From the NCBI GenBank assembly GCA_963663035.1, contig OY760074.1:2426967-2490966 (forward strand): DNA of 64,000 bases, written 5' to 3'. The stretch is from Acidobacteriota bacterium. GTDB lineage: Bacteria > Acidobacteriota > UBA6911 > RPQK01 > JADFOI01. This document shows positions 7,229-37,165 of the stretch, in pieces (within the stretch, counting starts at the first letter, position 1; each line of letters begins with the position of its first letter). The notes below the pieces were generated by a model. It made no database searches, was not told where the DNA came from, and worked only from the letters and a program-made list of their open reading frames with translations. The translations under genes were made by a program, and so were the position numbers.

Positions 7229-7530
7229 TGCATCACCTCGCCGAGCAACAGCACAGTATGCACTCCATCCACTATCCCACTAACAAGCAACAAAGTACAT
7301 AGTAAAAAGTCGAGTTAGACTGTGTCAAGCCAATGGAGGAACCTCCCCCATAGAAACGACTTCCTGACAGAGTTTCTGCTGCTAAATGTTAGTTCGTCTG
7401 AAAAGACTAATTTCTCGACTTGCACGGGCAATAGTTTAACGCTAACCGAGCCGAGTGAACAGTGACGGCTGTCACCGAAACTACGAAAAGAACCCGTCTC
7501 GTCTCAATCCCCCCGAAACTGAAAGAAGTT

Positions 7531-7891
7531 TGGTGGAGGCGGTGGGAATCGAACCCACGTCCGAAAGCCTTCGGTTGCAGAATCTACATGCTTATCCGCT
7601 TTCTTTTTTGTCATCCAATCAGGCAAATAAAAGCGGCAATAACACCTGCTTGAATGTCCCTCAGATATTTTCTCAACTACCCCCTGAAGGAAACAGGATA
7701 GCTGAAAATCCCGCAAAAGCGACGTCTTACCCGTTCCGCGGGCTGAGCGAGTTTGACGGCTGCGCCTTAATTACGCAGCGAGTGGTAACTGTTCGTTGGC
7801 AGTTATTTTTGTTCACCACTGTTTTACGAGGTTGTGGCACCTCGGCATGCATCTACAGCCTCAACTACTCCCGTCGAAGCCAATCGCCCCC
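7531..7891 (-). ncRNA. ssrA: tmRNA (SsrA)
   Basis: The minus strand starts GGGGGCGAUUGGCUUCGACGGG and ends GGGUUCGAUUCCCACCGCCUCCACCA. This gives a tRNA-Ala-like 7-bp acceptor stem with a G3:U70 wobble, a T-arm and an encoded CCA. An internal reading frame GCC AAC GAA CAG TTA CCA CTC GCT GCG TAA encodes ANEQLPLAA followed by a stop. Confidence 0.8.
7771..7800 (-). other. tmRNA tag-peptide reading frame (ANEQLPLAA plus stop)
   Basis: Direct translation of the minus strand. The C-terminal LAA is typical of ssrA degradation tags. Confidence 0.65.
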
Positions 7892-9435: not shown

Positions 9436-9516
9436 ACCCCTGACACCTGACAACTGACAGCTGACAGAAGACTCCTGTCTCCTGTCTCCTGCCTCCTGAC
9501 TCCTGACTCCTGCCTT
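9436..9516. repeat. Heptamer repeat arrays: CCTGACA-type x4 followed by TCCTGNC-type x6, forming an imperfect long hairpin between convergent genes
   Basis: acccctgacacctgacaactgacagctgacagaagactcctgtctcctgtctcctgcctcctgactcctgactcctgcc. The two arrays are mutually complementary, so the element could act as a bidirectional terminator. Confidence 0.75.
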
Positions 9517-20779: not shown

Positions 20780-20806
20780 TTTGTCATACACTAGGGAGCC
20801 CCTATT

Positions 20807-21052
20807 ATGAGCCCAAAACGTAAACTGCTTACCGTTTCTCTTCCCCCCGATATGGCCAGGAAGTTCGACAAGCTGGCTCGGGGCGAGGGCAAAAACAAAA
20901 GTCAGCTCTTCAGGGAGATGTTCCACACCTATGAACGACAGCGCCTCGAACGTGAATTCAACGACCTCCAGCGTTATGGTGCCAGCGAGGCCCGAAAAAT
21001 GGGTGTCTTGACTGAAGCCGATGTGGAAGCATTAGTATTTCAGGACCGCTGA
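20807..21052 (+). CDS. Ribbon-helix-helix (CopG-like) antitoxin
   Basis: An 81-aa protein whose N-terminus is RHH-like (KLLTVSLPPDMARKFDKLA). It lies immediately upstream of the PIN gene, separated from it by 3 bp. Confidence 0.65.
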   Translation: MSPKRKLLTVSLPPDMARKFDKLARGEGKNKSQLFREMFHTYERQRLEREFNDLQRYGASEARKMGVLTEADVEALVFQDR

Positions 21053-21055
21053 CGG

Positions 21056-21454
21056 GTGCAGGTTGTTTTCGATACGAACATTTTTATCTCTGCGTTCGTC
21101 ATTCCAGGCGGTAATGCGGATAAGGCATATCTTGAGGCCATCCGGGGAACCTTTGAGCTTCTTACCTCTGTAGCCATTCTGACTGAAACTGCGAACACAC
21201 TTCGCACCAAGTTTGCGTGGTCAGACTACAAGATCCAACAACTCCTCCGCGCCATCAGTGGAACCGCCACAGTCGTCAAGACCCAGCCTCACATTCACGT
21301 CCTCAAAGATGAGCCGGACAATCGAATCCTGGAATGTGCACTCCTTGCCGAAGCTGACCTGATCGTGACGGGAGATAAACATCTGCTTTCTTTGCGACAG
21401 TACCGGGATATGTCGATCATCACACTCGCTGATTTTATGGAACTCATTCAGTAA
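21056..21454 (+). CDS. PIN-domain toxin (VapC-like)
   Basis: MQVVFDTNIFISAF...ILECALLAEADLIVTGDKHL carries the PIN-domain acidic residues. GTG start. Confidence 0.7.
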   Translation: MQVVFDTNIFISAFVIPGGNADKAYLEAIRGTFELLTSVAILTETANTLRTKFAWSDYKIQQLLRAISGTATVVKTQPHIHVLKDEPDNRILECALLAEADLIVTGDKHLLSLRQYRDMSIITLADFMELIQ

Positions 21455-25675: not shown

Positions 25676-27187
25676 TCATTGGATATTCACAAAGACGGGA
25701 TTTGACAACACATTGTAGATGTTTCCGCGCCACCGAGCTCTCATCCGAAAATAGTGTCGACCCGATGGGAGTTTCTGCGTGCTCGTGATCTGGATGGGTA
25801 GGTACTGCTCAACCTGCTCCACGACCTCTCCGTTTCGGATCAGTTCAAGATGGAAGGGTCTATCCTCTTCAGGAGGATTATGGAGCCAATCCAAGTGAAT
25901 GTGCACCTGGACAGGGGATTCACCCTCCACTTCACCTCCTTGAAAAGCCTTGGCTCCCTCAAAGGTTTCCACACTGAGTTGGTGCAAACGAAGCTTTTCC
26001 TCCGGCTGTTGGAAGGTGGCGTAACCGCTTCCCTCACGAAGTGCTTCAAGAACGGCCGCTTCCGACTTCTCCGGCATCAAGAGGATGGTTTGGCCTCCGA
26101 CAAGGTCGTACCAGCTTCCCGGGTTACCTTTGAAGTAATGAAAATTGATTCCGGTGGTCAAAAAGGGAGGTGTCCTGCGCCAACCTTCGATATAGGAATT
26201 TAGGGCAAGGTCCCATACTCTACCGGGCAGAGTTGCCGTGATCCGATCGCCGTAGATCCCTTCAATCCCATGGTAACCATCGGTCAGGAGGAGATCTTCC
26301 GCGTGAGGCTGGCTCACCATTTTGGCTCCCCCCATTTGAACATCCGGATAACGAGCTTCTGGATAGCTCCAATAGACGATTCCACCCCGTTTATTCACAT
26401 AATCGATCACACGCTGATAAGGAAGAATGTCCTGCTGACCTGAGTGCGGATCACCCAGCCTCCCGAAAGGATAGTTGTTCCAGGCCAGCAGCAAAGCGAA
26501 TAGCATGATGCTCGTTGCTACTGCCCAAGGACGCCGCTTACGCAGGATCGTGTAGTCGCTGAGATGAATTTTCAGGTAGCTTCCTGACACCAGCAGGAGA
26601 ATCCCGCAAAGAAAGATGCCCGAGGGAACGAGGATCAAAGTCCAATGGGTAGCAGTATTTCCCCAGGTCTCATTTCCGATGACCGGCAGATTTTCAAGTT
26701 GCCGCTCCGTCAGTCCCAGGACAATCAGATGGCGGTCGAAATTGTAGAGTGTCGGCTCAATCCAGGGCTCTCCCTTCCAATAGTAGTAGGGCGTCACCTC
26801 CACGCCCGGGAGAATGACCAGATCAGGAAACTGCTTTTGTGCCTCTCGTACAGCGGCAAAGTAACGCCCGATTCCATAATCCCGAACCCCTGGCCGAACC
26901 ATTTTGTTGATTCCCTCAACGGCGATTCGATCGAACGGCCAGATCCCATAGACTACCGTGGTCAAAAAGGAGTCGGTCAGAACCAGTACGTCAATGTTTC
27001 GTTCCCTTGCAAAACCTGCCAGCTCTGAGACCTCATACTCACCGTTGCTAAAGGTGGAATGGACATGAATGGCGGCCGGGTAGTGCTTCAGCTCTTTTGT
27101 TGCAGCTTCCCCCTGAAAGCAAAACAAGAACAGGAGAAAAAGCAAAAGGAAGGGACTGCACTTAGAAGAAGTGTTCAAGAGAACCAC
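25676..27187 (-). CDS. PHP-domain (metal-dependent phosphoesterase) protein with a signal peptide and an internal TM segment
   Basis: Signal peptide FLLLFLLFLFCFQGEA, then PAAIHVHSTFSNGEY (PHP motif I, HxHxxxSxDG-like). Confidence 0.5.
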   Translation of the reverse strand: MVLLNTSSKCSPFLLLFLLFLFCFQGEAATKELKHYPAAIHVHSTFSNGEYEVSELAGFARERNIDVLVLTDSFLTTVVYGIWPFDRIAVEGINKMVRPGVRDYGIGRYFAAVREAQKQFPDLVILPGVEVTPYYYWKGEPWIEPTLYNFDRHLIVLGLTERQLENLPVIGNETWGNTATHWTLILVPSGIFLCGILLLVSGSYLKIHLSDYTILRKRRPWAVATSIMLFALLLAWNNYPFGRLGDPHSGQQDILPYQRVIDYVNKRGGIVYWSYPEARYPDVQMGGAKMVSQPHAEDLLLTDGYHGIEGIYGDRITATLPGRVWDLALNSYIEGWRRTPPFLTTGINFHYFKGNPGSWYDLVGGQTILLMPEKSEAAVLEALREGSGYATFQQPEEKLRLHQLSVETFEGAKAFQGGEVEGESPVQVHIHLDWLHNPPEEDRPFHLELIRNGEVVEQVEQYLPIQITSTQKLPSGRHYFRMRARWRGNIYNVLSNPVFVNIQ

Positions 27188-27230: not shown

Positions 27231-27689
27231 CTACCTGATCGGATCCCCGTCCAGCCAGTCATAGCCGATTTCCGAATCATCGTGGGGAATACGACCTTCG
27301 TCCTCTGGATTGTAGGTGTGAGAAGTAGCGTAAAGAAGACTTGCGGGCCCGCTGATGCACTTGCAACCGTGAGCGACACCGGGGGGGATCTTGAGAACGC
27401 TTGCCTCGTGGCGATCCCCTAGCATCATTTCCATACTCTGACGGTAGGTAGACGATTCCGGTCGCTTATCGTACAAGACGACCTTCAAAACTCCCGTGCA
27501 GACATACCACCAGTCCGTCTGCTTGTTATGAATATGCCAGGCCTTGATGACTCCCGGGTGCATCAATGAGTGACTCCACTGCCCAAAACCCTCCTCGAAG
27601 AAATCGTCCGTCACCCGAATGATCTCGCGAAAAAACCCACGCTCGTCTCGGTGGGTCTTCAAACTTCTGACAACCACCCCATCAATCAT
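27231..27689 (-). CDS. RmlC-like cupin: dTDP-4-dehydrorhamnose 3,5-epimerase, or a sugar 3,4-ketoisomerase family member
   Basis: A 152-aa protein with DERGFFREI and WHIHNKQTDWWYV, typical of RmlC/FdtA-like cupins. Confidence 0.55.
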   Translation of the reverse strand: MIDGVVVRSLKTHRDERGFFREIIRVTDDFFEEGFGQWSHSLMHPGVIKAWHIHNKQTDWWYVCTGVLKVVLYDKRPESSTYRQSMEMMLGDRHEASVLKIPPGVAHGCKCISGPASLLYATSHTYNPEDEGRIPHDDSEIGYDWLDGDPIR

Positions 27690-28765
27690 AGAGGCGTAGC
27701 CTCGCTTAAGATTTTGACAATGCGTCTGGCGGCATCTCCATCTCCAAAGTCAAGCCGGCGTGCTTGAGGTGGCTTGATCGTTGCAACGGCATGAACGATG
27801 TCGGATTGATCAGCTCCAACCACTACGTTCCAGCCAGACTCTACGGTTTCAGTCCATTCTGTCTCCGGGCGTAGCGTTACACAGGGTACGCCGACAAAAT
27901 AGGCTTCCTTCTGTACACCCCCGGAATCGGTGAGGATCACTCGGGCATTCTGTTCAAGCATGAGCATGTCAAGGTAGCTTACCGGTTTGATGCTCTGGAC
28001 ATTGGGCATTTGAGATAAATCCAGTGCGCCATTCACCCCACTAAGACTGTGTTTCGTCCTGGGATGAATGGGGAAAACAATCGTCTCTTTTATCTCGGCA
28101 AAAGCACTAAGAATGCTGCACAGAGCTTCGGGAGAATCGGTATTGTAGGCACGGTGAACTGTGGCTAACAAGTAGTTTCCTGGCTTTAAATCCAGTTTCT
28201 CAAGTATCTTCGAGCGCTGGCGGGCGACATCGCCAAAGGACAACACCGAGTCGTACATGGTGTCTCCGACAAGGTGTACTCCCCTGGTAATGCCCTCTCT
28301 AGCCAGGTTCTCAATAGCGGTCTTGGTTGGGCAGAAGAACAGGTCAGAGCAGTGATCAGCAATCTGGCGATTACGCTCTTCGGGCATTTCACGATTGAAG
28401 GACCGCAAGCCAGCCTCAACATGGGCCAGGGGAACATTCAGTTTCACTGCAGCCAGGGCAGCCGCCAGAGTCGAATTGGCGTCACCATAAACAATGACCC
28501 AATCCGGCTTTTCCGACTGGAGAACTTCCTCCACACCCATCAGCATGTGAGCCGTTTGGAACCCATGAGTTCCTGATCCTACTCCTAAGTTCAGGTCGGG
28601 TTCAGGAAGTTCCAGTTCTTCAAAGAAAACGCGAGACATCTCCGTATCATAGTGTTGTCCAGTGTGTATCAAGATTTCCTGGTGATGGTTTTTCCTGAGC
28701 TCCTTACTGACGGGAGCAGCCTTGATAAACTGGGGGCGGGCTCCTACGATTGTGACGACTTTCAT
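27686..28765 (-). CDS. UDP-N-acetylglucosamine 2-epimerase (non-hydrolysing, WecB/WbpI family)
   Basis: MKVVTIVGARPQFIKAAPV...HVEAGLRSFN... Confidence 0.85.
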   Translation of the reverse strand: MKVVTIVGARPQFIKAAPVSKELRKNHHQEILIHTGQHYDTEMSRVFFEELELPEPDLNLGVGSGTHGFQTAHMLMGVEEVLQSEKPDWVIVYGDANSTLAAALAAVKLNVPLAHVEAGLRSFNREMPEERNRQIADHCSDLFFCPTKTAIENLAREGITRGVHLVGDTMYDSVLSFGDVARQRSKILEKLDLKPGNYLLATVHRAYNTDSPEALCSILSAFAEIKETIVFPIHPRTKHSLSGVNGALDLSQMPNVQSIKPVSYLDMLMLEQNARVILTDSGGVQKEAYFVGVPCVTLRPETEWTETVESGWNVVVGADQSDIVHAVATIKPPQARRLDFGDGDAARRIVKILSEATPL

Positions 28766-29880
28766 GGTTGAGTCTCAGAACCAACCATGGCGCCTTCTAA
28801 TGCAGCCACAACCTCCTGCACCTGTTGGTCGGACATCTCCGGGTAGACTGGGATGGCCAGGGTTTCGCGACTCATTTGTTCTGTAACCGCGAGATCACCC
28901 TCCTTTAATCCGAGAAACTGGCAGGGCTTGGTCAAGTGCAGGGGTTGGGGATAGTAGATAGCAGAGCCAATCCCTTTCTCTCTCAGAATTTGGATAACCT
29001 CGTCACGCTGCCTCAGTCGCACCACAAAAAGATGAAAAACGTGCTTGACCGAGCTGGCTTCATAAGGCACCCCTATGCCGAGATCAGAAAGTTGTTCCTT
29101 ATATTGGGCCGCCACCTCACGACGACGTTGGTTCCAGACATCAAGGTAGTTCAACTTTACCCTGAGGATTGCCGCCTGTAGCTCATCCAGACGACTGTTG
29201 TGCCCTGTCGTCTCGGGGAAGTACTTTTCCCGCCACCCGTGGGTTCGCAGCATTCGCGCCCGCTCGTAAGTTTCAGCGTCGTTGGTGACCACCATTCCCC
29301 CATCGCCATAGGCTCCCAGGTTCTTGCTTGGAAAGAAACTCAAACATCCTGCATCGCCCAGGCTTCCGGTTTTTCTGCCATCGTACTCGGCTCCCATGGC
29401 CTGGGCATTGTCCTCAATGACTTTTAAGCCGTGAGTCCCAGCCAATTCCAATAGGGGGCCCATAGAGGCTGGATGCCCATACATATGGACTGGAATGACG
29501 GCCTTGGTACTGGGTGTCAGCTGCTCTGTGACCTGCTGCACATCAAGACAGTAGGTGTCGGGTTCGATATCGACGAATACGGGTCTCGCACCCACCTGCA
29601 GAACCGCTTCAGCCGTAGCAAAGAAGGTATAGCTGGGCACAATCACCTCATCGCCAGCACCGATGCCTAGACTCTCCAAGGCGATGATCAGGGCGTCAGT
29701 GCCCGATGCCACCCCGATAGCATGTTTGACCCCCAGGTAGGCCGCCACTTCCTGTTCCAACTCTTGAACATTGGGACCAAGCACAAAGTGTCCCGACTCC
29801 AAGACCTGTTGAATCGCACCGTCAATTTCCGACTGAATTGCTCGATACTGAGCTTTTAAGTCAACCAGCGGTATTGTCAT
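28762..29880 (-). CDS. DegT/DnrJ/EryC1 family PLP-dependent sugar aminotransferase
   Basis: MTIPLVDLKAQY...HFVLGPNVQELEQEVAAYLGVKHAIGVASGTDAL. Start taken at the ATG at 29880. Confidence 0.85.
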   Translation of the reverse strand: MTIPLVDLKAQYRAIQSEIDGAIQQVLESGHFVLGPNVQELEQEVAAYLGVKHAIGVASGTDALIIALESLGIGAGDEVIVPSYTFFATAEAVLQVGARPVFVDIEPDTYCLDVQQVTEQLTPSTKAVIPVHMYGHPASMGPLLELAGTHGLKVIEDNAQAMGAEYDGRKTGSLGDAGCLSFFPSKNLGAYGDGGMVVTNDAETYERARMLRTHGWREKYFPETTGHNSRLDELQAAILRVKLNYLDVWNQRRREVAAQYKEQLSDLGIGVPYEASSVKHVFHLFVVRLRQRDEVIQILREKGIGSAIYYPQPLHLTKPCQFLGLKEGDLAVTEQMSRETLAIPVYPEMSDQQVQEVVAALEGAMVGSETQP

Positions 29881-30469
29881 GATCCGTCTCACTCGGACTT
29901 ACCTTGGGTCCTTCCTTTGAATAGCGGGTGCCGCAGCTGCCACATTCTGCCACCTTCTGGTCATCTTCCGGCCCAAAAATCAACTTTGTCCCACACTGAC
30001 AGACCCAGCCCCGAAGCCTTCCGGGATTCCCATAGACGAGGGCATAATCCGGGATGTCCTTGGTGATGACCGCACCAGCCCCCACAAAGGAGTAGCGCCC
30101 CACCATCATTCCACAAACAATGGTGGCGTTCGCTCCAATTGAGGCCCCTCGCTTGACCAGTGTTTGCTGATATTCATTTCTTCGAGAAACATGGCTGCGT
30201 GGATTCACCACGTTGGTGAACACCATCGAAGGACCCAGAAAGGCATAATCTTCTACGGTAACGCCCGTATAAACAGAAACGTTGTTTTGGATTTTGACAT
30301 GGTCACCAATGACCACATCAGAACCGATAAATACGTTTTGGCCGATATTGCAATCGTCCCCAACCTTGGCCCCTGCCATCAGGTGAGAGAAGTGCCAAAT
30401 CTTCGTTCCCGTGCCGACCTCTGCTCCCTCATCTACAAAACTGGATTCATGAGCGAAATAGTCTGTCAT
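29861..30469 (-). CDS. Hexapeptide-repeat sugar N-acetyltransferase (WbpD/PglD-like) with a C-terminal Cys4 zinc ribbon
   Basis: Left-handed beta-helix repeats, ending CQCGTKLIFGPEDDQKVAECGSCGTRY. Confidence 0.75.
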   Translation of the reverse strand: MTDYFAHESSFVDEGAEVGTGTKIWHFSHLMAGAKVGDDCNIGQNVFIGSDVVIGDHVKIQNNVSVYTGVTVEDYAFLGPSMVFTNVVNPRSHVSRRNEYQQTLVKRGASIGANATIVCGMMVGRYSFVGAGAVITKDIPDYALVYGNPGRLRGWVCQCGTKLIFGPEDDQKVAECGSCGTRYSKEGPKVSPSETDHDNTAG

Positions 30470-31476
30470 TTCGCTTCAGCCTCCGCTAGCTCGGACAGCG
30501 ACACCGGCAGACTGCCTGTCTCCAAGGACCTTTGGCTTGCCTCCAGGACCTTGAGCACCCTCAAGGCACTTTCACCGTCGGTCAACGGAGACGTGTGCTC
30601 GCGAATGCAGGTCAGAAAGTGCTCGCACTCGAGCCGCAGTGGTTCCGTCTCATCGAAAAACAAGGTTGTTTCCGCAGTCTGGCGGGGAACCGGAAGTCCA
30701 GCTTCCCACTCGATTCCCTGGTCATAAATCTTGAGTTTGCCCTCGCGAGCTGTGTCATCGAACACCGCCATTTTCTTCTCACCAATGACAACCAGTTTTT
30801 GTTCCTTGTAGGGGTGGAGCCAACTGACAAAAATGTGTGCTCTCACCCCATTTTCGAAAAACAGGCTGGTCACCGTCACATCCACAATGCCCGGCTGCAG
30901 GTAGCTTCCACCAGAAGCGGTCACCTCATTGGGCTCGGACTCTAATAGCTCGCAAATCACCGAGATATCGTGAGGGGCAAAGCTCCACAAGATATTTTCT
31001 TCCTGTCGAACCTTCCCAAGATTGAGTCGACTTGAATAGATGTACCAGATTCTACCCAACTCATTCTTCTGCACGATGTCTTGGAGCAACCTTACCGCTG
31101 GGTGGTAGTTGAGAATGTGACCCACCATGAGCAACACGCCACGGTCCTTGGCCAAGGTCACGAGTTCCCGTCCCTGCTCATACTTGAGCGCCAGCGGCTT
31201 CTCGACAAAAACGTTCTTGCCCCTCAGGACTGCTTCCTTGACATGTTCGTAGTGGGATTCAGCTGGTGTGGCAATTGCCACCGCCTGAATGCTGTCTTCA
31301 GTAAGTACTTCTTCCAAACGGGAGGTTCGGCGAATGTTGGGGTACTCCTCAGAGTAAGCCTGCAGGAGCTCGTCGTTGCTGTCACAAATGCAGCCCAGTG
31401 CTCCCAGCTGGGCAAAATTGCGCACCAGGTTTTTACCCCAGTAGCCACAACCGACAACAGCTAAGCTCTGGTCCAT
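30466..31476 (-). CDS. Gfo/Idh/MocA family NAD-dependent UDP-sugar oxidoreductase (WbpB-like)
   Basis: N-terminal Rossmann motif LAVVGCGYWGKNLVRN. First gene of the minus-strand cassette. Confidence 0.8.
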   Translation of the reverse strand: MDQSLAVVGCGYWGKNLVRNFAQLGALGCICDSNDELLQAYSEEYPNIRRTSRLEEVLTEDSIQAVAIATPAESHYEHVKEAVLRGKNVFVEKPLALKYEQGRELVTLAKDRGVLLMVGHILNYHPAVRLLQDIVQKNELGRIWYIYSSRLNLGKVRQEENILWSFAPHDISVICELLESEPNEVTASGGSYLQPGIVDVTVTSLFFENGVRAHIFVSWLHPYKEQKLVVIGEKKMAVFDDTAREGKLKIYDQGIEWEAGLPVPRQTAETTLFFDETEPLRLECEHFLTCIREHTSPLTDGESALRVLKVLEASQRSLETGSLPVSLSELAEAEAK

Positions 31477-31518
31477 TTACCCATTCCCCAATCTCAATTT
31501 CGGCCAAGTACCCACAGG

Positions 31519-31594
31519 ACTTCGTAGAGTCACCCTATAATATAAAATTAGAGTGGCATAGAGAGTGGCATAACTCGTTGCTTGTCATGAAAGG
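31519..31594 (+). promoter_or_regulatory. Conserved promoter/leader element, copy A: ACTTCGTAGAGTCACCCTATAATATAAAA...TCGTTGCTTGTCATGAAAGG
   Basis: Highly similar to 36344-36407. It contains a perfect TATAAT and lies immediately 5' of the plus-strand cassette. Confidence 0.4.
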
Positions 31595-32683
31595 ATGCAT
31601 TTGACAGTTCACTTGGAGACTGTGAATAGGGCGCTGAGAATAGGGATGATCGGAGTGGGTTTCTGGGGTCCGAAACTTCTTCGAAACCTTGTTGAGATGA
31701 ACGAAGCGGATGTTGTGGCCGTGGCGGATCTGGCTGAAACAAATAGAAGAAAGGTCGGACAAACGTATCCCAGCCTGAGGGTCATTGAAAACCACAGAGA
31801 GATTTTGGAGAACCCTGACATCGAGGCAGTCGTCATCGCCACCCCTGCGGCGACCCACTTTGATCTGGTCCAGGAGGCTCTGAAGGCGGGTAAACATGTT
31901 TTGGTAGAGAAACCGCTTTGCACCAGCACCGATGAGGCGTTGCAATTGACGCAAATGGCCTCCCAACGAGGTGTGATTCTCATGGTGGGTCACACCTTTC
32001 TCTACAACGCCGCAGTCCGAAAGGCGAAGGAATATATCGATAGTCGTGAACTGGGCAGTGTTCTCTATCTTTACGGTAGGAGAGTGAATCTGGGGAAAGT
32101 TCGACAGGATGTGAACTCACTGTGGAATTTTGCACCCCACGACATTTCCATAGTGAACTACTTGTTGAGTTCCGTTCCCGAGTCGGTCCAGGCCTTCGGA
32201 GCGTGCTACATTCAGAAGGACATTGAAGACGTCGTTTTCCTCAACATGCGCTACCCAGATGGGGTGATCTGCTCCCTGCACTTGAGTTGATTGGATCCCA
32301 AAAAGGTTCGGCGGATGACGATTGTCGGAACCGAAAAAATGCTGATCTACAACGACGTTTCAAGCGACCAGAAAATACAACTCATTGACAAAGGCGTTGA
32401 AATCAAGGGTCGGGAGCCCGGCAATGACGAGATGGTGAATTTTGGTGAATATCAGGTACTGCTCCGTTCCGGCGACGTTTTGATCCCCAAGGTGAATTTT
32501 ATTGAGCCCTTGCGAGTAGAGTGCACCCATTTTGTGGAGTGCTGTTTCAAAGGAGATACCCCTTTGACCGATGGGTTGAACGGTCTCCAGGTGGTTGCCG
32601 TTCTGGAAGCCGCCTCCCGTTCACTGCAAAACTCAGGCTCTGAGGTGGAAGTCGATTATCTTGAAGCCAGGGCAGAAGCTTGA
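31595..32683 (+). pseudogene. Gfo/Idh/MocA oxidoreductase paralogue interrupted by an in-frame TGA (32288-32290) at a conserved Trp codon
   Basis: ORFs 31595..32290 and 32291..32683 are in the same frame. HLS*LDPKKV aligns with FVSWLHPYKE of the paralogue at 30466..31476. Confidence 0.7.
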
Positions 32684-33738
32684 AGGTCCTTTCTGTTCTG
32701 GGCACCCGGCCCAATTTCGTGAAGGAGTTTCTGGTACATCGGGAATTCCAGAGAAGGGAAATCAAGGAAATCATCGTTCATACTGGACAACACTATGATT
32801 ACGAAATGTCTCGAGTGTTTTTTAATACTTTCGATCTTCCCGATCCTCACTACCATTTCGAGATTGGAGCCAGAAGCAGTGTGGCCTCAACTGCAGAAAC
32901 GATGCTGAGCCTCGAGGATGTGCTGCACAAGGAAAAGCCGAACGCCGTTCTTTCCTATGGAGATGTCAATTCGACTACCGCAGCCGCCATAGCCGCCGTA
33001 AAGACCAAGATCCCGTTCGTGCACGTTGAAGGAGGAATTCGGACACCTTTTCTGTACAATCCGGAGGAGATCAATCGTCGGCTTTCCGATTGTGTGGCCG
33101 ATTTGATTTTCACGTGTACTCGTACCGACACGGAAAATCTCTGCCGGGAAAACGTTCCCAGGGAGCGGATCTGCTTTTCGGGAGATTTGATGAAAGATGC
33201 ATTGCTGTACACACTGGAGACACAATCCATTCCCGTCAAGAGAGGCGACTATGTGGTGGCAACGATTCACCGTGAAGAAAACGCTGACAATCCGCAGCGA
33301 CTTCGAGAGATTATGCATGGCCTGGTTCAGAGCGAACAGATCATCCACTTTCCTGTACATCCTCGAACCAGAAAACGCTTGGAAAAGTTCGGGATTCTGG
33401 AAGAGGTGAAGAGCTGCGACCGGATTCGGATGACAGAGCCCACAGGATATCTTGAATTTATACGTCTCCTGGCAGGTGCTGACAAGGTCGTGACTGATTC
33501 GGGCGGAGTGCGAAGAGAGGCTTTTCTTTTGAGAAAACCGGTGATTATTCCAGTTGAGCTGGTGTGGTTTCCGGAAATTCTGGAAGCGGGTTGGAAGATC
33601 CATGTTCCACCCAAGGCTTCAGAAGTGGCTGAGGCTATCCGGGAGTTTGAGCCCACAGGACCGCACAACCCCGAGATCTTCGGTAACGGGGAGTCGGCGC
33701 GAAAGATCGTCGACAACATCGTAGAGCATTATCAATAG
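32680..33738 (+). CDS. UDP-N-acetylglucosamine 2-epimerase-like (WecB/WbpI family), second copy
   Basis: MKVLSVLGTRPNFVKEF...FVHVEGGIRT. A TTG start overlaps the preceding TGA. Confidence 0.8.
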   Translation: MKVLSVLGTRPNFVKEFLVHREFQRREIKEIIVHTGQHYDYEMSRVFFNTFDLPDPHYHFEIGARSSVASTAETMLSLEDVLHKEKPNAVLSYGDVNSTTAAAIAAVKTKIPFVHVEGGIRTPFLYNPEEINRRLSDCVADLIFTCTRTDTENLCRENVPRERICFSGDLMKDALLYTLETQSIPVKRGDYVVATIHREENADNPQRLREIMHGLVQSEQIIHFPVHPRTRKRLEKFGILEEVKSCDRIRMTEPTGYLEFIRLLAGADKVVTDSGGVRREAFLLRKPVIIPVELVWFPEILEAGWKIHVPPKASEVAEAIREFEPTGPHNPEIFGNGESARKIVDNIVEHYQ

Positions 33739-33780
33739 TGAAACCGGGCCTTCACGTCGTCGATGAGATGAAACAGTTTC

Positions 33781-34353
33781 ATGCCGATGAACTACTTCAA
33801 ACATCCGAAGGCACTCGTTGAGACCAACGAAATCGGAGCGGACACCCGAGTGTGGGCTTTTGCCCACATCATGAAGGGTGCTCGGGTGGGCAGCGGATGC
33901 AACATCTGCGAGCAGGTATTCATCGAAAGCGGTGCGATCGTTGGGAATCTGGTCACGGTCAAGAATGGCGTCAGCCTTTGGGACAAGATAACTATAGAAG
34001 ACCGGGTTTTTATCGGGCCCAATGCTGCTTTTACCAATGACATGTGGCCTAGAAGCAGAGCCGGTGGGGATTTGCTTCCGACGCTGATTCGCTACGGTGC
34101 AACGATCGGAGCCAATGCGACCTTCCTGTGCGGAATCATCATCGGAAAGTTTGCATTCATCGGAGCCGGTTCGGTCGTTACCCGGGATGTACCGGACTAC
34201 ACCCTCGTTTTGGGAAATCCGGCCAGAAAAGGGGGCTATGTGTGCGAATGTTCCAGGAAGCTCATCCAGGAGGATCCCAACTCTTACCGGTGCCAGCGGT
34301 GTTCGAAAGCGTATCTGGCGACCGCGGAAGGAATCCTGACACCGAATGACTGA
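33781..34353 (+). CDS. Hexapeptide-repeat sugar N-acetyltransferase with a C-terminal Cys4 zinc ribbon, second copy
   Basis: A paralogue of 29861..30469, ending CECSRKLIQEDPNSYRCQRCSKAY. Confidence 0.75.
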   Translation: MPMNYFKHPKALVETNEIGADTRVWAFAHIMKGARVGSGCNICEQVFIESGAIVGNLVTVKNGVSLWDKITIEDRVFIGPNAAFTNDMWPRSRAGGDLLPTLIRYGATIGANATFLCGIIIGKFAFIGAGSVVTRDVPDYTLVLGNPARKGGYVCECSRKLIQEDPNSYRCQRCSKAYLATAEGILTPND

Positions 34354-34370
34354 GAGCGTGTTGCTCACTG

Positions 34371-34445
34371 GAATGTGGGAGCCGCCTCAGTGCGGCGAAT
34401 GGGCCTCTTCGCGGCCTGAGGCCGCTCCCACATTCTCCCAACCGC
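34371..34445. terminator. Long nested hairpin between convergent genes: a 20-bp stem with one mismatch enclosing an inner 8-bp stem
   Basis: gaatgtgggagccgcctcag ... ctgaggccgctcccacattc. Confidence 0.5.
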
Positions 34446-34462
34446 AAGGACAGGAAGGCGGG

Positions 34463-36316
34463 CTAGCGCTTCGCATACACCTGAACTTTGCCGAAGTTCA
34501 TCATCTGGGTAAAGCCGAAACTCCCATCCCTCAAACCCCGATAATATTGCAGATGTTCTCTGTACTGGGCCTCACCGGCGCCAAACTGGCTGGCTTTGGT
34601 GGGATCTACGAACCTTTGTGATATCTCTTCACTCACAATGACAACGTCCGGTGCGAAAATCTCGAGGTCTTCACTCGTCCCTGCGAAAGTCAGTTGAGCC
34701 TCCGCGAAGGCGGGCGGTACATAGCTGTAGCTGTCGTACAGCACTCGAGAATCCGCCTCGAAGGTCTCGGCCAGCCACAGACCGGCCCTCACCGCGGGGC
34801 TCTTCTCCACACGCAATCTCTCTGTAGCTCGAAACTCTTGAACTCTTGTGATGGAGCTAGCAAAATCTGCGGCACCCAGCACGAGAAAGAGCACGAGGAC
34901 AGGAACGGCGAACTTGCGAGAGACGGCGTCGAGAGACGCTCGTGCGAGTTGAGCCAGGAACTGTCCAGCGAGGATGATCAGGACTGGAAACACCGGCAAG
35001 AGATAACGAGGCTCCATCATGCGAACTCGCATCACCAGGAAGCCCAGGTACAAGAGGACCCAAAGCCAAAGAATCACCTCGGGTCGGATGACTGGCCCAG
35101 CCAAGCGCTGACCGATCGACAGATGCTGGGCCTCTTTAGTGGCCAGGTCGTGGAAGAGATAAAGAAGACCCACTGCAGCCATTGCGGCAAATGTAACCCC
35201 CAGCAAATCCTGTGAGACGAGCAGCGACAGCCATCCTTGCACGCCTCCCTCACCCCGAAAATAATGGCCGAAGGCCACATGCCTGGATTGGGAAATCATG
35301 CCGTAGAGGAAGTTGAGTTTCCAAAGCGAGAAGGGTGAGCCAATGACGAAGGCTGTGATAAAGGCAGCCACCGAAATACCAACTTGCGACAGTGTTCTTG
35401 CTAGAAAATCACTTCTGGCCAGGAGCCTCCAGGGCCAGCGCAGGATGCCGAGAACAATGAGGACACATCCTGTAGCACCCAGCAAAATCCTGAACTCCCT
35501 GATTACCGGCAAGTTGCTGCTCTCTACAGCACCATCGGAAGTCAATAAGCGAGCCACAAGTTCAACCCGCATCACCAATCCCAGCGAAACGCTCCCAATT
35601 CCCGCCGCCAGAGTTAGACCACGGGCCCATTTTCTGACCAGCAGGGCAGCGCTCCGAAATGGGCCCACCTCATCGCGGCCTGCGTTCCCCCCAACCGCCA
35701 CAAGCCAGATGACTGGGAGCAGAAAGAGGCCTGAGTACTTGCAGGCAAAAGCCAATCCAGCGGAAGCGGAGGCAAGAACAAGAGACTCCCGGCTTTTGTC
35801 GCCGCCTAGCCTGCAACAGAAATACAGCCCAAGCATGAGGAAGAACAGTTGAGGAACGTCTGGGTGAGCATAAACCGACCATTCGATAAAATTCAACGAG
35901 ATCCCACAGAGCAGGCAGGCCGACACCCAACCGACAAGACGACCGAAGTATCTGCGGGCTAGAAAGAAAGTGCAGAGAACCGTGGCTGCACCAGCCACTG
36001 CCGATACCAGGCGTAAACTGATGATAATCGACTGATCGGTCACTGGAGTGAGGAAGCTCATCAAGAACAGAGGAATGAGAGCGAGGTTGAATTGTAGATG
36101 CCCATACTGCGAGTAGTCGATTCGCAGGGTCCCCTGGGACAGCGCCTGACGCAAAAGCTCCAATTGGGTGGGTTCATCTGAGTTGAAAACAGAGACCAGG
36201 CGAATATTCTCGGATGCGGTGGGGATCATGGCCGTCGCGAGCCACACGAAGTAGCAGCCCGTCAAGACCGCAACGCATATTCCCTCGAGGTTTCTGTTCA
36301 TTGGAATCTCCGGCAT
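34463..36316 (-). CDS. Large polytopic membrane protein, putative GT-C fold glycosyltransferase (ArnT/PMT-like) with a C-terminal periplasmic domain
   Basis: 617 aa with more than 10 predicted TM helices, an early DEP motif (VFNSDEPTQLELL) and a soluble C-terminal domain of about 150 aa. The family assignment is tentative. Confidence 0.45.
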   Translation of the reverse strand: MPEIPMNRNLEGICVAVLTGCYFVWLATAMIPTASENIRLVSVFNSDEPTQLELLRQALSQGTLRIDYSQYGHLQFNLALIPLFLMSFLTPVTDQSIIISLRLVSAVAGAATVLCTFFLARRYFGRLVGWVSACLLCGISLNFIEWSVYAHPDVPQLFFLMLGLYFCCRLGGDKSRESLVLASASAGLAFACKYSGLFLLPVIWLVAVGGNAGRDEVGPFRSAALLVRKWARGLTLAAGIGSVSLGLVMRVELVARLLTSDGAVESSNLPVIREFRILLGATGCVLIVLGILRWPWRLLARSDFLARTLSQVGISVAAFITAFVIGSPFSLWKLNFLYGMISQSRHVAFGHYFRGEGGVQGWLSLLVSQDLLGVTFAAMAAVGLLYLFHDLATKEAQHLSIGQRLAGPVIRPEVILWLWVLLYLGFLVMRVRMMEPRYLLPVFPVLIILAGQFLAQLARASLDAVSRKFAVPVLVLFLVLGAADFASSITRVQEFRATERLRVEKSPAVRAGLWLAETFEADSRVLYDSYSYVPPAFAEAQLTFAGTSEDLEIFAPDVVIVSEEISQRFVDPTKASQFGAGEAQYREHLQYYRGLRDGSFGFTQMMNFGKVQVYAKR

Positions 36317-36343: not shown

Positions 36344-36407
36344 ACTTCGTGGAGTCAACCTATAATATAAAAGAAGAATGGCGTTAATCGTTGCTTGTAC
36401 TGAAAAG
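36344..36407 (+). promoter_or_regulatory. Conserved promoter/leader element, copy B: ACTTCGTGGAGTCAACCTATAATATAAAA...TCGTTGCTTGTACTGAAAAG
   Basis: Aligns with copy A at 31519. Immediately 5' of the methyltransferase operon. Confidence 0.4.
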
Positions 36408-37165
36408 TGATCATGACCCGGTCTGACGACCCTTCAATTCGCACTTTTTATGATCGCTGGTATGAAGCGCGATCTGAGGGGAAAGACATTGATCGTCTCT
36501 GTCGCATTCGTGTCATCCGGAATTTCCTGCGTGCGCTTTCCCTTGGAGATAGTAACATCCTGGAGCTTGGATGCGGCCAAGGGTGGCTGGCAAACGTGCT
36601 CTCGCAGTACGGTCGGGTGACGGCGGTTGACTTGTCAGCCGAGGCAATTCTCGCAGCCAAATCAGCCTACCCTCACATTGAGTTCCGTGCCGGTAGTTTC
36701 CTTGAGATGACCGACCTGCCAAGAGACTGCGATCTGATCGTCTCGTCAGAGGTGGTTGAGCATATGGTCGCCGAAGAGCAGATTCGATTCCTGGCTCTCA
36801 TCAGCGATCACCTTCGCCCGGGAGGATCAGTGATCTTGACCACGCAGAACCGAGAAGTAGCAGGAAGATTTCTGGAGAGTGGCGATCCGGATGCGCCAGA
36901 TCATCTCCAACCGATCGAGCAGTGGCTTTCGATTGAAGAGCTTCGTGCCATGCTCGAGCCAATGTTTGAGATCCTGAAGATGAAAACGGTCCTCTTCTTT
37001 CATCCATTCTTGCGCCGGCATCGGACGCTCAACTGGCTAAGGTATGTGGCGTATTGCCGGCTCGGCCTCTTGCCTGTGATTGAAGGCAGTCTCGATGGAG
37101 GGCCAGGAGGGATGTACATGTGTTGTCTGGCGAGGAAAGCGGCACACCAGGGACGCTGTGGATAG
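36407..37165 (+). CDS. Class I SAM-dependent methyltransferase
   Basis: ILELGCGQGWLANVL (motif I) and LRPGGSVILTTQN. Confidence 0.75.
   Translation: MIMTRSDDPSIRTFYDRWYEARSEGKDIDRLCRIRVIRNFLRALSLGDSNILELGCGQGWLANVLSQYGRVTAVDLSAEAILAAKSAYPHIEFRAGSFLEMTDLPRDCDLIVSSEVVEHMVAEEQIRFLALISDHLRPGGSVILTTQNREVAGRFLESGDPDAPDHLQPIEQWLSIEELRAMLEPMFEILKMKTVLFFHPFLRRHRTLNWLRYVAYCRLGLLPVIEGSLDGGPGGMYMCCLARKAAHQGRCG

Follow-up and report, generated by a model that had tools for sequence, protein, structure and literature searches.

Single-base nonsense mutations that give rise to pseudogenes or loss-of-function polymorphisms are known from O-antigen and capsule loci, where a sugar-modifying gene carries a premature stop that is polymorphic among very close strains, within an otherwise intact cluster. 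The locus described here shares each of these properties: in the stretch of DNA that we analysed (64,000 nucleotides, hereafter the window), a GFO/IDH/MocA oxidoreductase gene on the plus strand (31601-32683) is cut in two by an in-frame TGA at 32288-32290. It differs from the known cases in that its host is uncultured and probably acidobacterial, and in that an adjoining, divergent paralogous set of genes may buffer the loss. The interruption is a nonsense allele of an ordinary kind in a redundant-looking glycan gene. On the sequence comparisons reported below, we consider it likely to be a young, segregating TGG to TGA loss-of-function allele, an ordinary knock-out with no recoding signal.

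The encoded enzyme has the same fold as the UDP-GlcNAc(A) 3-dehydrogenases GnnA (PDB 7bvj) and WlbA/WbpB (PDB 3q2k; Foldseek E ~1e-24, TM 0.76). The likeness extends to the EKP motif and to a context of DegT aminotransferase, hexapeptide acetyltransferase and WecB-type 2-epimerase, and the make-up of the cluster recalls the WbpB/E/D/I route to 2,3-diacetamido sugars. Identity to GnnA and WlbA is, however, only ~22%, the copy here is truncated, and its match to the NCBIfam model of UDP-N-acetylglucosamine 3-dehydrogenase (NF040723) reaches 185 bits where the cut-off is 450; the minus-strand paralogue reaches 155 bits. The original prediction had called the gene a UDP-sugar oxidoreductase. That name fits the gene context but outruns the sub-threshold family match, and as it rests on these two things it should be read as provisional with respect to substrate.

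A third point of comparison is the basal readthrough of UGA in bacteria, in which Trp-tRNA-Trp competes with RF2 and, in an E. coli reporter (PMC10570021), succeeds in ~2% of cases (37 C) to ~4% (25 C). As there, Trp inserted at the UGA would give a meaningful product here; unlike there, the stop has arisen recently by mutation, neither a conserved context nor a stimulatory element accompanies it, and any readthrough would be incidental.

The interrupted gene and its surroundings

Around the stop the plus strand reads CAC TTG AGT TGA TTG GAT CCC, and the open reading frames on its two sides (31595-32290 and 32291-32683) lie in one common frame. Bridging the TGA gives a product of 362 aa from ATG 31595 or 360 aa from TTG 31601, and residues 16-362 of the longer form align with residues 5-335 of the minus-strand paralogue (30466-31476) at 36% identity (E 1e-81). 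The end-to-end alignment that the original prediction had proposed therefore holds, as does its placement of the stop exactly opposite a paralogue Trp, which lies in the motif FVSWLHP. Its first reading frame, beginning at 31595, was correct in frame but is better started at TTG 31601, the codon favoured by gene callers and by a Shine-Dalgarno-like AAAGGA at 31590-31595, with ATG 31595 as the alternative.

Family assignment of the bridged product is straightforward. A Rossmann NAD(P)-binding domain (PF01408) occupies residues 14-133 (E 1.9e-29), as expected at the N-terminus of this family, and the EKP motif is present as VEKPL at residues 102-106, with E103 and P105 invariant and K104 at least 90% conserved in 121 homologues. 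PF02894 spans residues 145-352 and crosses the stop (230/232), such that the C-terminal domain is contiguous only if the TGA is bridged; the Pfam matches to GFO_IDH_MocA_C and GFO_IDH_MocA_C3 (PF02894 / PF22725) both run across it. The natural terminus of the gene is also a TGA (32681-32683).

Two sets of sugar genes diverge from the oxidoreductase pair (Table 1). The minus-strand set, 27686-31476, is complete, with oxidoreductase, acetyltransferase, aminotransferase and epimerase, and provides the gene context expected of a UDP-GlcNAc 3-dehydrogenase. The plus-strand set runs oxidoreductase, epimerase, acetyltransferase, without an aminotransferase of its own, and its epimerase begins at a TTG that overlaps the oxidoreductase's natural stop (TTGA). 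Between the sets the two epimerases are 36% identical and the two acetyltransferases 44%, which together with the 36% of the oxidoreductases points to an old duplication or to separate acquisition. Genes for glycosyltransferases, methyltransferases, a flippase and PMT_2-type proteins in the surrounding 20 kb identify the region as a surface-polysaccharide cluster. A scan of 31300-34600 for promoter and terminator consensus sequences returned matches no more frequently than in shuffled sequence, and picked out no promoter in the 118 nt between the two oxidoreductase genes.

Table 1. Features of the interrupted gene and of the two divergent sugar-gene sets, in window coordinates
Feature	Coordinates	Strand	Remarks
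2-epimerase	27686..28765	-	intact minus-strand set
DegT-family aminotransferase	28762..29892	-	intact minus-strand set
Acetyltransferase	29861..30469	-	intact minus-strand set
Paralogous oxidoreductase, intact, 336 aa	30466..31476	-	divergent; Trp at aligned position
Intergenic, 118 nt	31477..31594	.	between divergent oxidoreductase genes; presumably both promoters
N-terminal fragment, 229 aa, TTG start	31601..32290	+	Rossmann domain and first part of C-terminal sheet
Premature TGA	32288..32290	+	from TGG (invariant Trp230), G>A transition at 32290; +4 base T
In-frame remnant, residues 231-360	32291..32683	+	three beta strands and two long C-terminal helices
WecB-type UDP-GlcNAc 2-epimerase	32680..33738	+	TIGR00236, 245 bits vs cut-off 210
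Hexapeptide-repeat sugar N-acetyltransferase	33781..34353	+	last of plus-strand set

Several other features of the region were recorded. The plus-strand acetyltransferase is shadowed by an antisense 249-aa ORF (33619-34368, minus strand) with no Pfam match, which is called as a gene in the public record of one near-identical assembly (L001), the acetyltransferase being called in another (L002); the antisense call is a gene-calling artefact. Amid the glycosyltransferase block lies a 142-aa EVE-domain protein (PF01878; 22743-23171, minus strand), and a PIN/RHH toxin-antitoxin-like pair is found just upstream of the cluster, roughly at 20800-21450 of the window (L125 1802-2449). The cluster also encodes a 503-aa protein (25676-27187, minus strand) with no Pfam match and a sub-threshold CehA/McbA metallohydrolase score (49 bits; cut-off 80), in which two strain-specific changes, V343L and F308I, occur. 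A tmRNA gene with the tag peptide ANEQLPLAA is located at 7531-7891 on the minus strand, with a strain SNP at 7733 within it.

Conservation of Trp230 and the predicted structural cost of termination

Searching 5.8 billion proteins with the bridged sequence as query recovered an intact 360-aa protein (P0001) that is 100% identical to it. W230 is invariant in the 121 homologues, both paralogues included, and is one of 33 invariant columns. Trp occupies the site in every one of the orthologues P0124 and P0002-P0005 (95-68% identity), and an 88% orthologue, the sole close one in a scan of JGI metagenomes (L049), reads AGT TGG TTG. No orthologue has a stop at codon 230 or is a split gene. The nearest named proteins come from Acidobacteriota MAGs; with the intact protein as query, the best match among GTDB species representatives is 48% identical, and none is close. 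Relative to the 88% orthologue, dN/dS is 0.21 for the part before the stop and 0.25 for the part after it, which indicates that selection has constrained the whole gene across the wider lineage and that its disruption is recent.

Because all orthologues have Trp and a near-identical assembly (L001, described below) has TGG, the ancestral codon was TGG, and the window's allele is derived from it by a G to A transition. The position of the stop opposite the paralogue's Trp is no chance resemblance: that Trp is invariant in the 121 homologues, and L001 has TGG at the same base. The allele thus stands one substitution from an intact gene whose ancestral state is a sense codon, as a nonsense pseudogene should.

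An AlphaFold model built from the 121-sequence alignment (pLDDT 89, pTM 0.87) matches solved GFO-family structures at full length with TM 0.75-0.80, GnnA (7bvj) and WlbA (3q2k) among them. In the model W230 directly follows the strand formed by residues 223-229, and a stop there costs the protein three strands (236-243, 247-251 and 259-262) and two helices (303-317 and 325-343). The loss amounts to 131 of the 360 residues, falls in the C-terminal domain and takes away invariant positions, which beyond the stop include P233, K235, G243, M247, D252, E302, P303, L304 and F311. Since the C-terminal strands and helices and several invariant residues would all be missing, the model makes it very unlikely that the 229-aa fragment is active.

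A split enzyme would escape this verdict if translation restarted at UUG 32291 or AUG 32315 and the two fragments assembled non-covalently. The UUG directly after the UGA, a weak AAGG 9 nt upstream of AUG 32315 and the 122-aa ORF that gene callers annotate from that ATG inside the remnant are what could be expected of such an arrangement. Yet a restart at AUG 32315 would lose nine residues, including the invariant W230, P233 and K235; one at the UUG, which has no clear Shine-Dalgarno sequence, would still lose W230; the cut falls inside the C-terminal beta sheet; and the orthologues offer no split counterpart. We therefore hold a split enzyme to be very improbable.

TGA and TGG alleles among near-identical assemblies

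Alleles were compared on assembly consensus sequences. The contig that encodes the intact P0001 (L001; ENA ERZ28669063 ctg7846, 90 kb) has the same gene order as the window and differs from it by 8 substitutions and 0 indels over 15,298 nt; within the 1083-nt gene the single difference is A in the window against G in L001 at position 32290. The TGA allele recurs in L002 (ERZ28763718 ctg125096, 2.59 Mb), which, with 4 private SNPs and 6 differences from the window in 20.7 kb, represents a separate haplotype. It is found again in L004 (ERZ23495140, sample SAMN09064976), a 2.2-kb scaffold that contains an N gap and is identical to the window over 31706-32799. The exact 229-aa product (P0122) is on record on three contigs of more than 1 Mb each, the longest 3.59 Mb, and the 122-aa product from ATG 32315 (P0121) on four. 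TGA and TGG alleles therefore segregate among near-identical strains.

The original prediction had listed a sequencing error among its explanations, and it is true that the difference is one base only and that the near-identical L001 has TGG. A one-off error is unlikely in light of the sequence data, though, because the same A is present in L002 with its own SNPs, in L004 from another named sample, and in the contigs of more than 1 Mb from which the truncated product is on record. A systematic long-read error is disfavoured by the occurrence of TGA in L004, apparently a short-read scaffold, and of TGG in L001, and the absence of any indel over 20 kb of the cluster speaks for high consensus quality of the assemblies. 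With the TGA recurring in assemblies of differing haplotype and type, an error in sequencing or assembly consensus that conceals a genomic TGG is, in our estimation, quite unlikely. The TGG to TGA nonsense mutation, which the prediction had also named, is by contrast borne out by the TGG of the otherwise identical L001 gene and by Trp in the orthologues and the 121 homologues.

In the 15.3 kb over which the window can be compared with both L001 and L002, the two TGA haplotypes lie 4 sites apart and each lies 8 sites from the TGG haplotype, which places the mutation before the split of the TGA haplotypes. In the 393 nt past the stop there are 0 variable sites across haplotypes, where ~0.1 would be expected, a count with no power to separate decay from constraint. 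The presence of TGA in most of the near-identical assemblies, and its persistence through some divergence, suggest that the allele is tolerated; it could also be advantageous or partly functional.

Further differences among these assemblies lie outside the interrupted codon. Across the three haplotypes, window 21601-42290 holds 12 variable sites (10 nonsynonymous, 1 nonsense, 1 synonymous) and 0 indels. In the 23-kb flank at 460-23255 there are 3 nonsynonymous, 2 synonymous and 3 non-coding SNPs (the last include the tmRNA SNP at 7733), as well as two indels between genes, of 8 bp near 7293 and of 7 bp near 9472. That amino-acid changes are in excess in the cluster fits very recent divergence, the counts being too small to claim diversifying selection. 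The TGG-bearing contig L001 ends at window 36898, mid-cluster and within a methyltransferase gene (36407-37165), while the TGA contigs continue for megabases; strain heterogeneity may have broken the assembly there. In L004, at 1095-1131 (window 32800-32881), a 10-N gap replaces 55 nt, and two mismatches just beyond it look like scaffold-edge artefacts, not real variants.

Decoding of the stop and its expected consequences

Apart from its position in frame, nothing suggests that the TGA is decoded by design. Of the 50 other ORFs that were tallied in the window, 22 stop at TGA, the interrupted gene's own end and that of the paralogue among them, and it is the commonest ordinary stop. The window is densely packed with long table-11 ORFs, and no further split gene occurs in its 64 kb, the other pairs of neighbouring same-frame ORFs belonging to different protein families. 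These observations speak strongly against an alternative code (tables 4/25). Selenocysteine was likewise rejected: the site is an invariant Trp, not Cys or Sec, and it has neither a SECIS hairpin nor a matching RNA family. No Rfam family matched 30000-35000 at E<=1, and the predicted structure of 32270-32370, which spans the stop, is no better than that of shuffled sequence (z -0.25). On both sides of the TGA the sequence is the same as in the TGG allele, which means that no change has accumulated near the stop. Neither a stop conserved among orthologues nor a stimulatory element or RNA structure, the marks of programmed readthrough, is found here, and readthrough as a designed feature, which the original prediction had left as one option, finds no support on any of these counts or in the standing of TGA as the commonest stop. 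We give next to no credence to programmed recoding, whether by selenocysteine insertion or by TGA coding for Trp or Gly throughout the genome.

That the TGA coincides with a conserved Trp is instead the mark that a point mutation leaves; it does not signal decoding. TGG is one transition from TGA or TAG, and the ORFs of the window contain 264 TGG codons; at a strain divergence of ~5e-4 per site, we estimate a probability of ~0.1 that an unpurged TGG to stop difference would be seen somewhere in the 64 kb.

It remains to weigh whether the new stop is leaky enough to matter. By analogy with E. coli, where the original prediction was right that tRNA-Trp misreads UGA (~2-4%, PMC10570021), unprogrammed misreading could yield the exact wild-type protein at a few percent of its normal amount at most. 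This leak is generic and gives no evidence about the site in question, and the fact that readthrough restores the wild-type residue is not informative, since it holds for every TGG to TGA mutation. The tryptic peptide YPDGVICSLHLSWLDPK is the predicted marker of a readthrough product, alongside C-terminal peptides.

If the TGA were kept because it is leaky, with tRNA-Trp supplying a reduced but useful dose of enzyme, expression would be tuned and not abolished. The rate measured in the E. coli reporter, the restoration of the exact residue, and the occurrence of the TGA in two diverged haplotypes and in most near-identical assemblies are all compatible with this. They are set against a stop that no orthologue has, the lack of a stimulatory structure or RNA family, flanks the same as those of the TGG allele, and the regular use of TGA as the commonest normal stop in the window. 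The base following the premature stop (+4) is moreover U, which Poole, Brown and Tate (1995) are reported to have found to be the most efficient context for termination in E. coli. We find a retained leaky allele unlikely. A little less likely still is the more specific version in which the TGA has been selected as a low-dose allele and misreading sets the proportion of modified sugar in the surface glycan.

Under the preferred reading, a young loss-of-function allele, a G to A change at 32290 converted TGG, the codon of the invariant Trp230, to TGA in one of the pair of divergent sugar-nucleotide dehydrogenase paralogues. RF2 would then terminate translation at codon 230 and release the 229-aa fragment, and this copy of the enzyme, deprived of the C-terminal strands, helices and invariant residues, would be inactive. 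The effect might reach the next gene: because the epimerase's TTG start overlaps the natural stop, it may be translated only if ribosomes get that far, and the premature stop could lower expression of this translationally coupled epimerase (32680-33738). The glycan step carried out by the plus-strand set would be lost or reduced, with the intact minus-strand set continuing to work.

For annotation, both ORFs should be treated as one disrupted gene, a pseudogene allele; neither a pair of genes nor a recoding event should be recorded. Were the leaky reading to prove true, the locus would be an instance of natural expression tuning by near-cognate decoding of UGA. As a probable knock-out, it shows how a TGA opposite a conserved Trp can be the simple product of a G to A transition, and it offers a clean case of strain-level loss-of-function variation at a surface-glycan locus of an uncultured bacterium.
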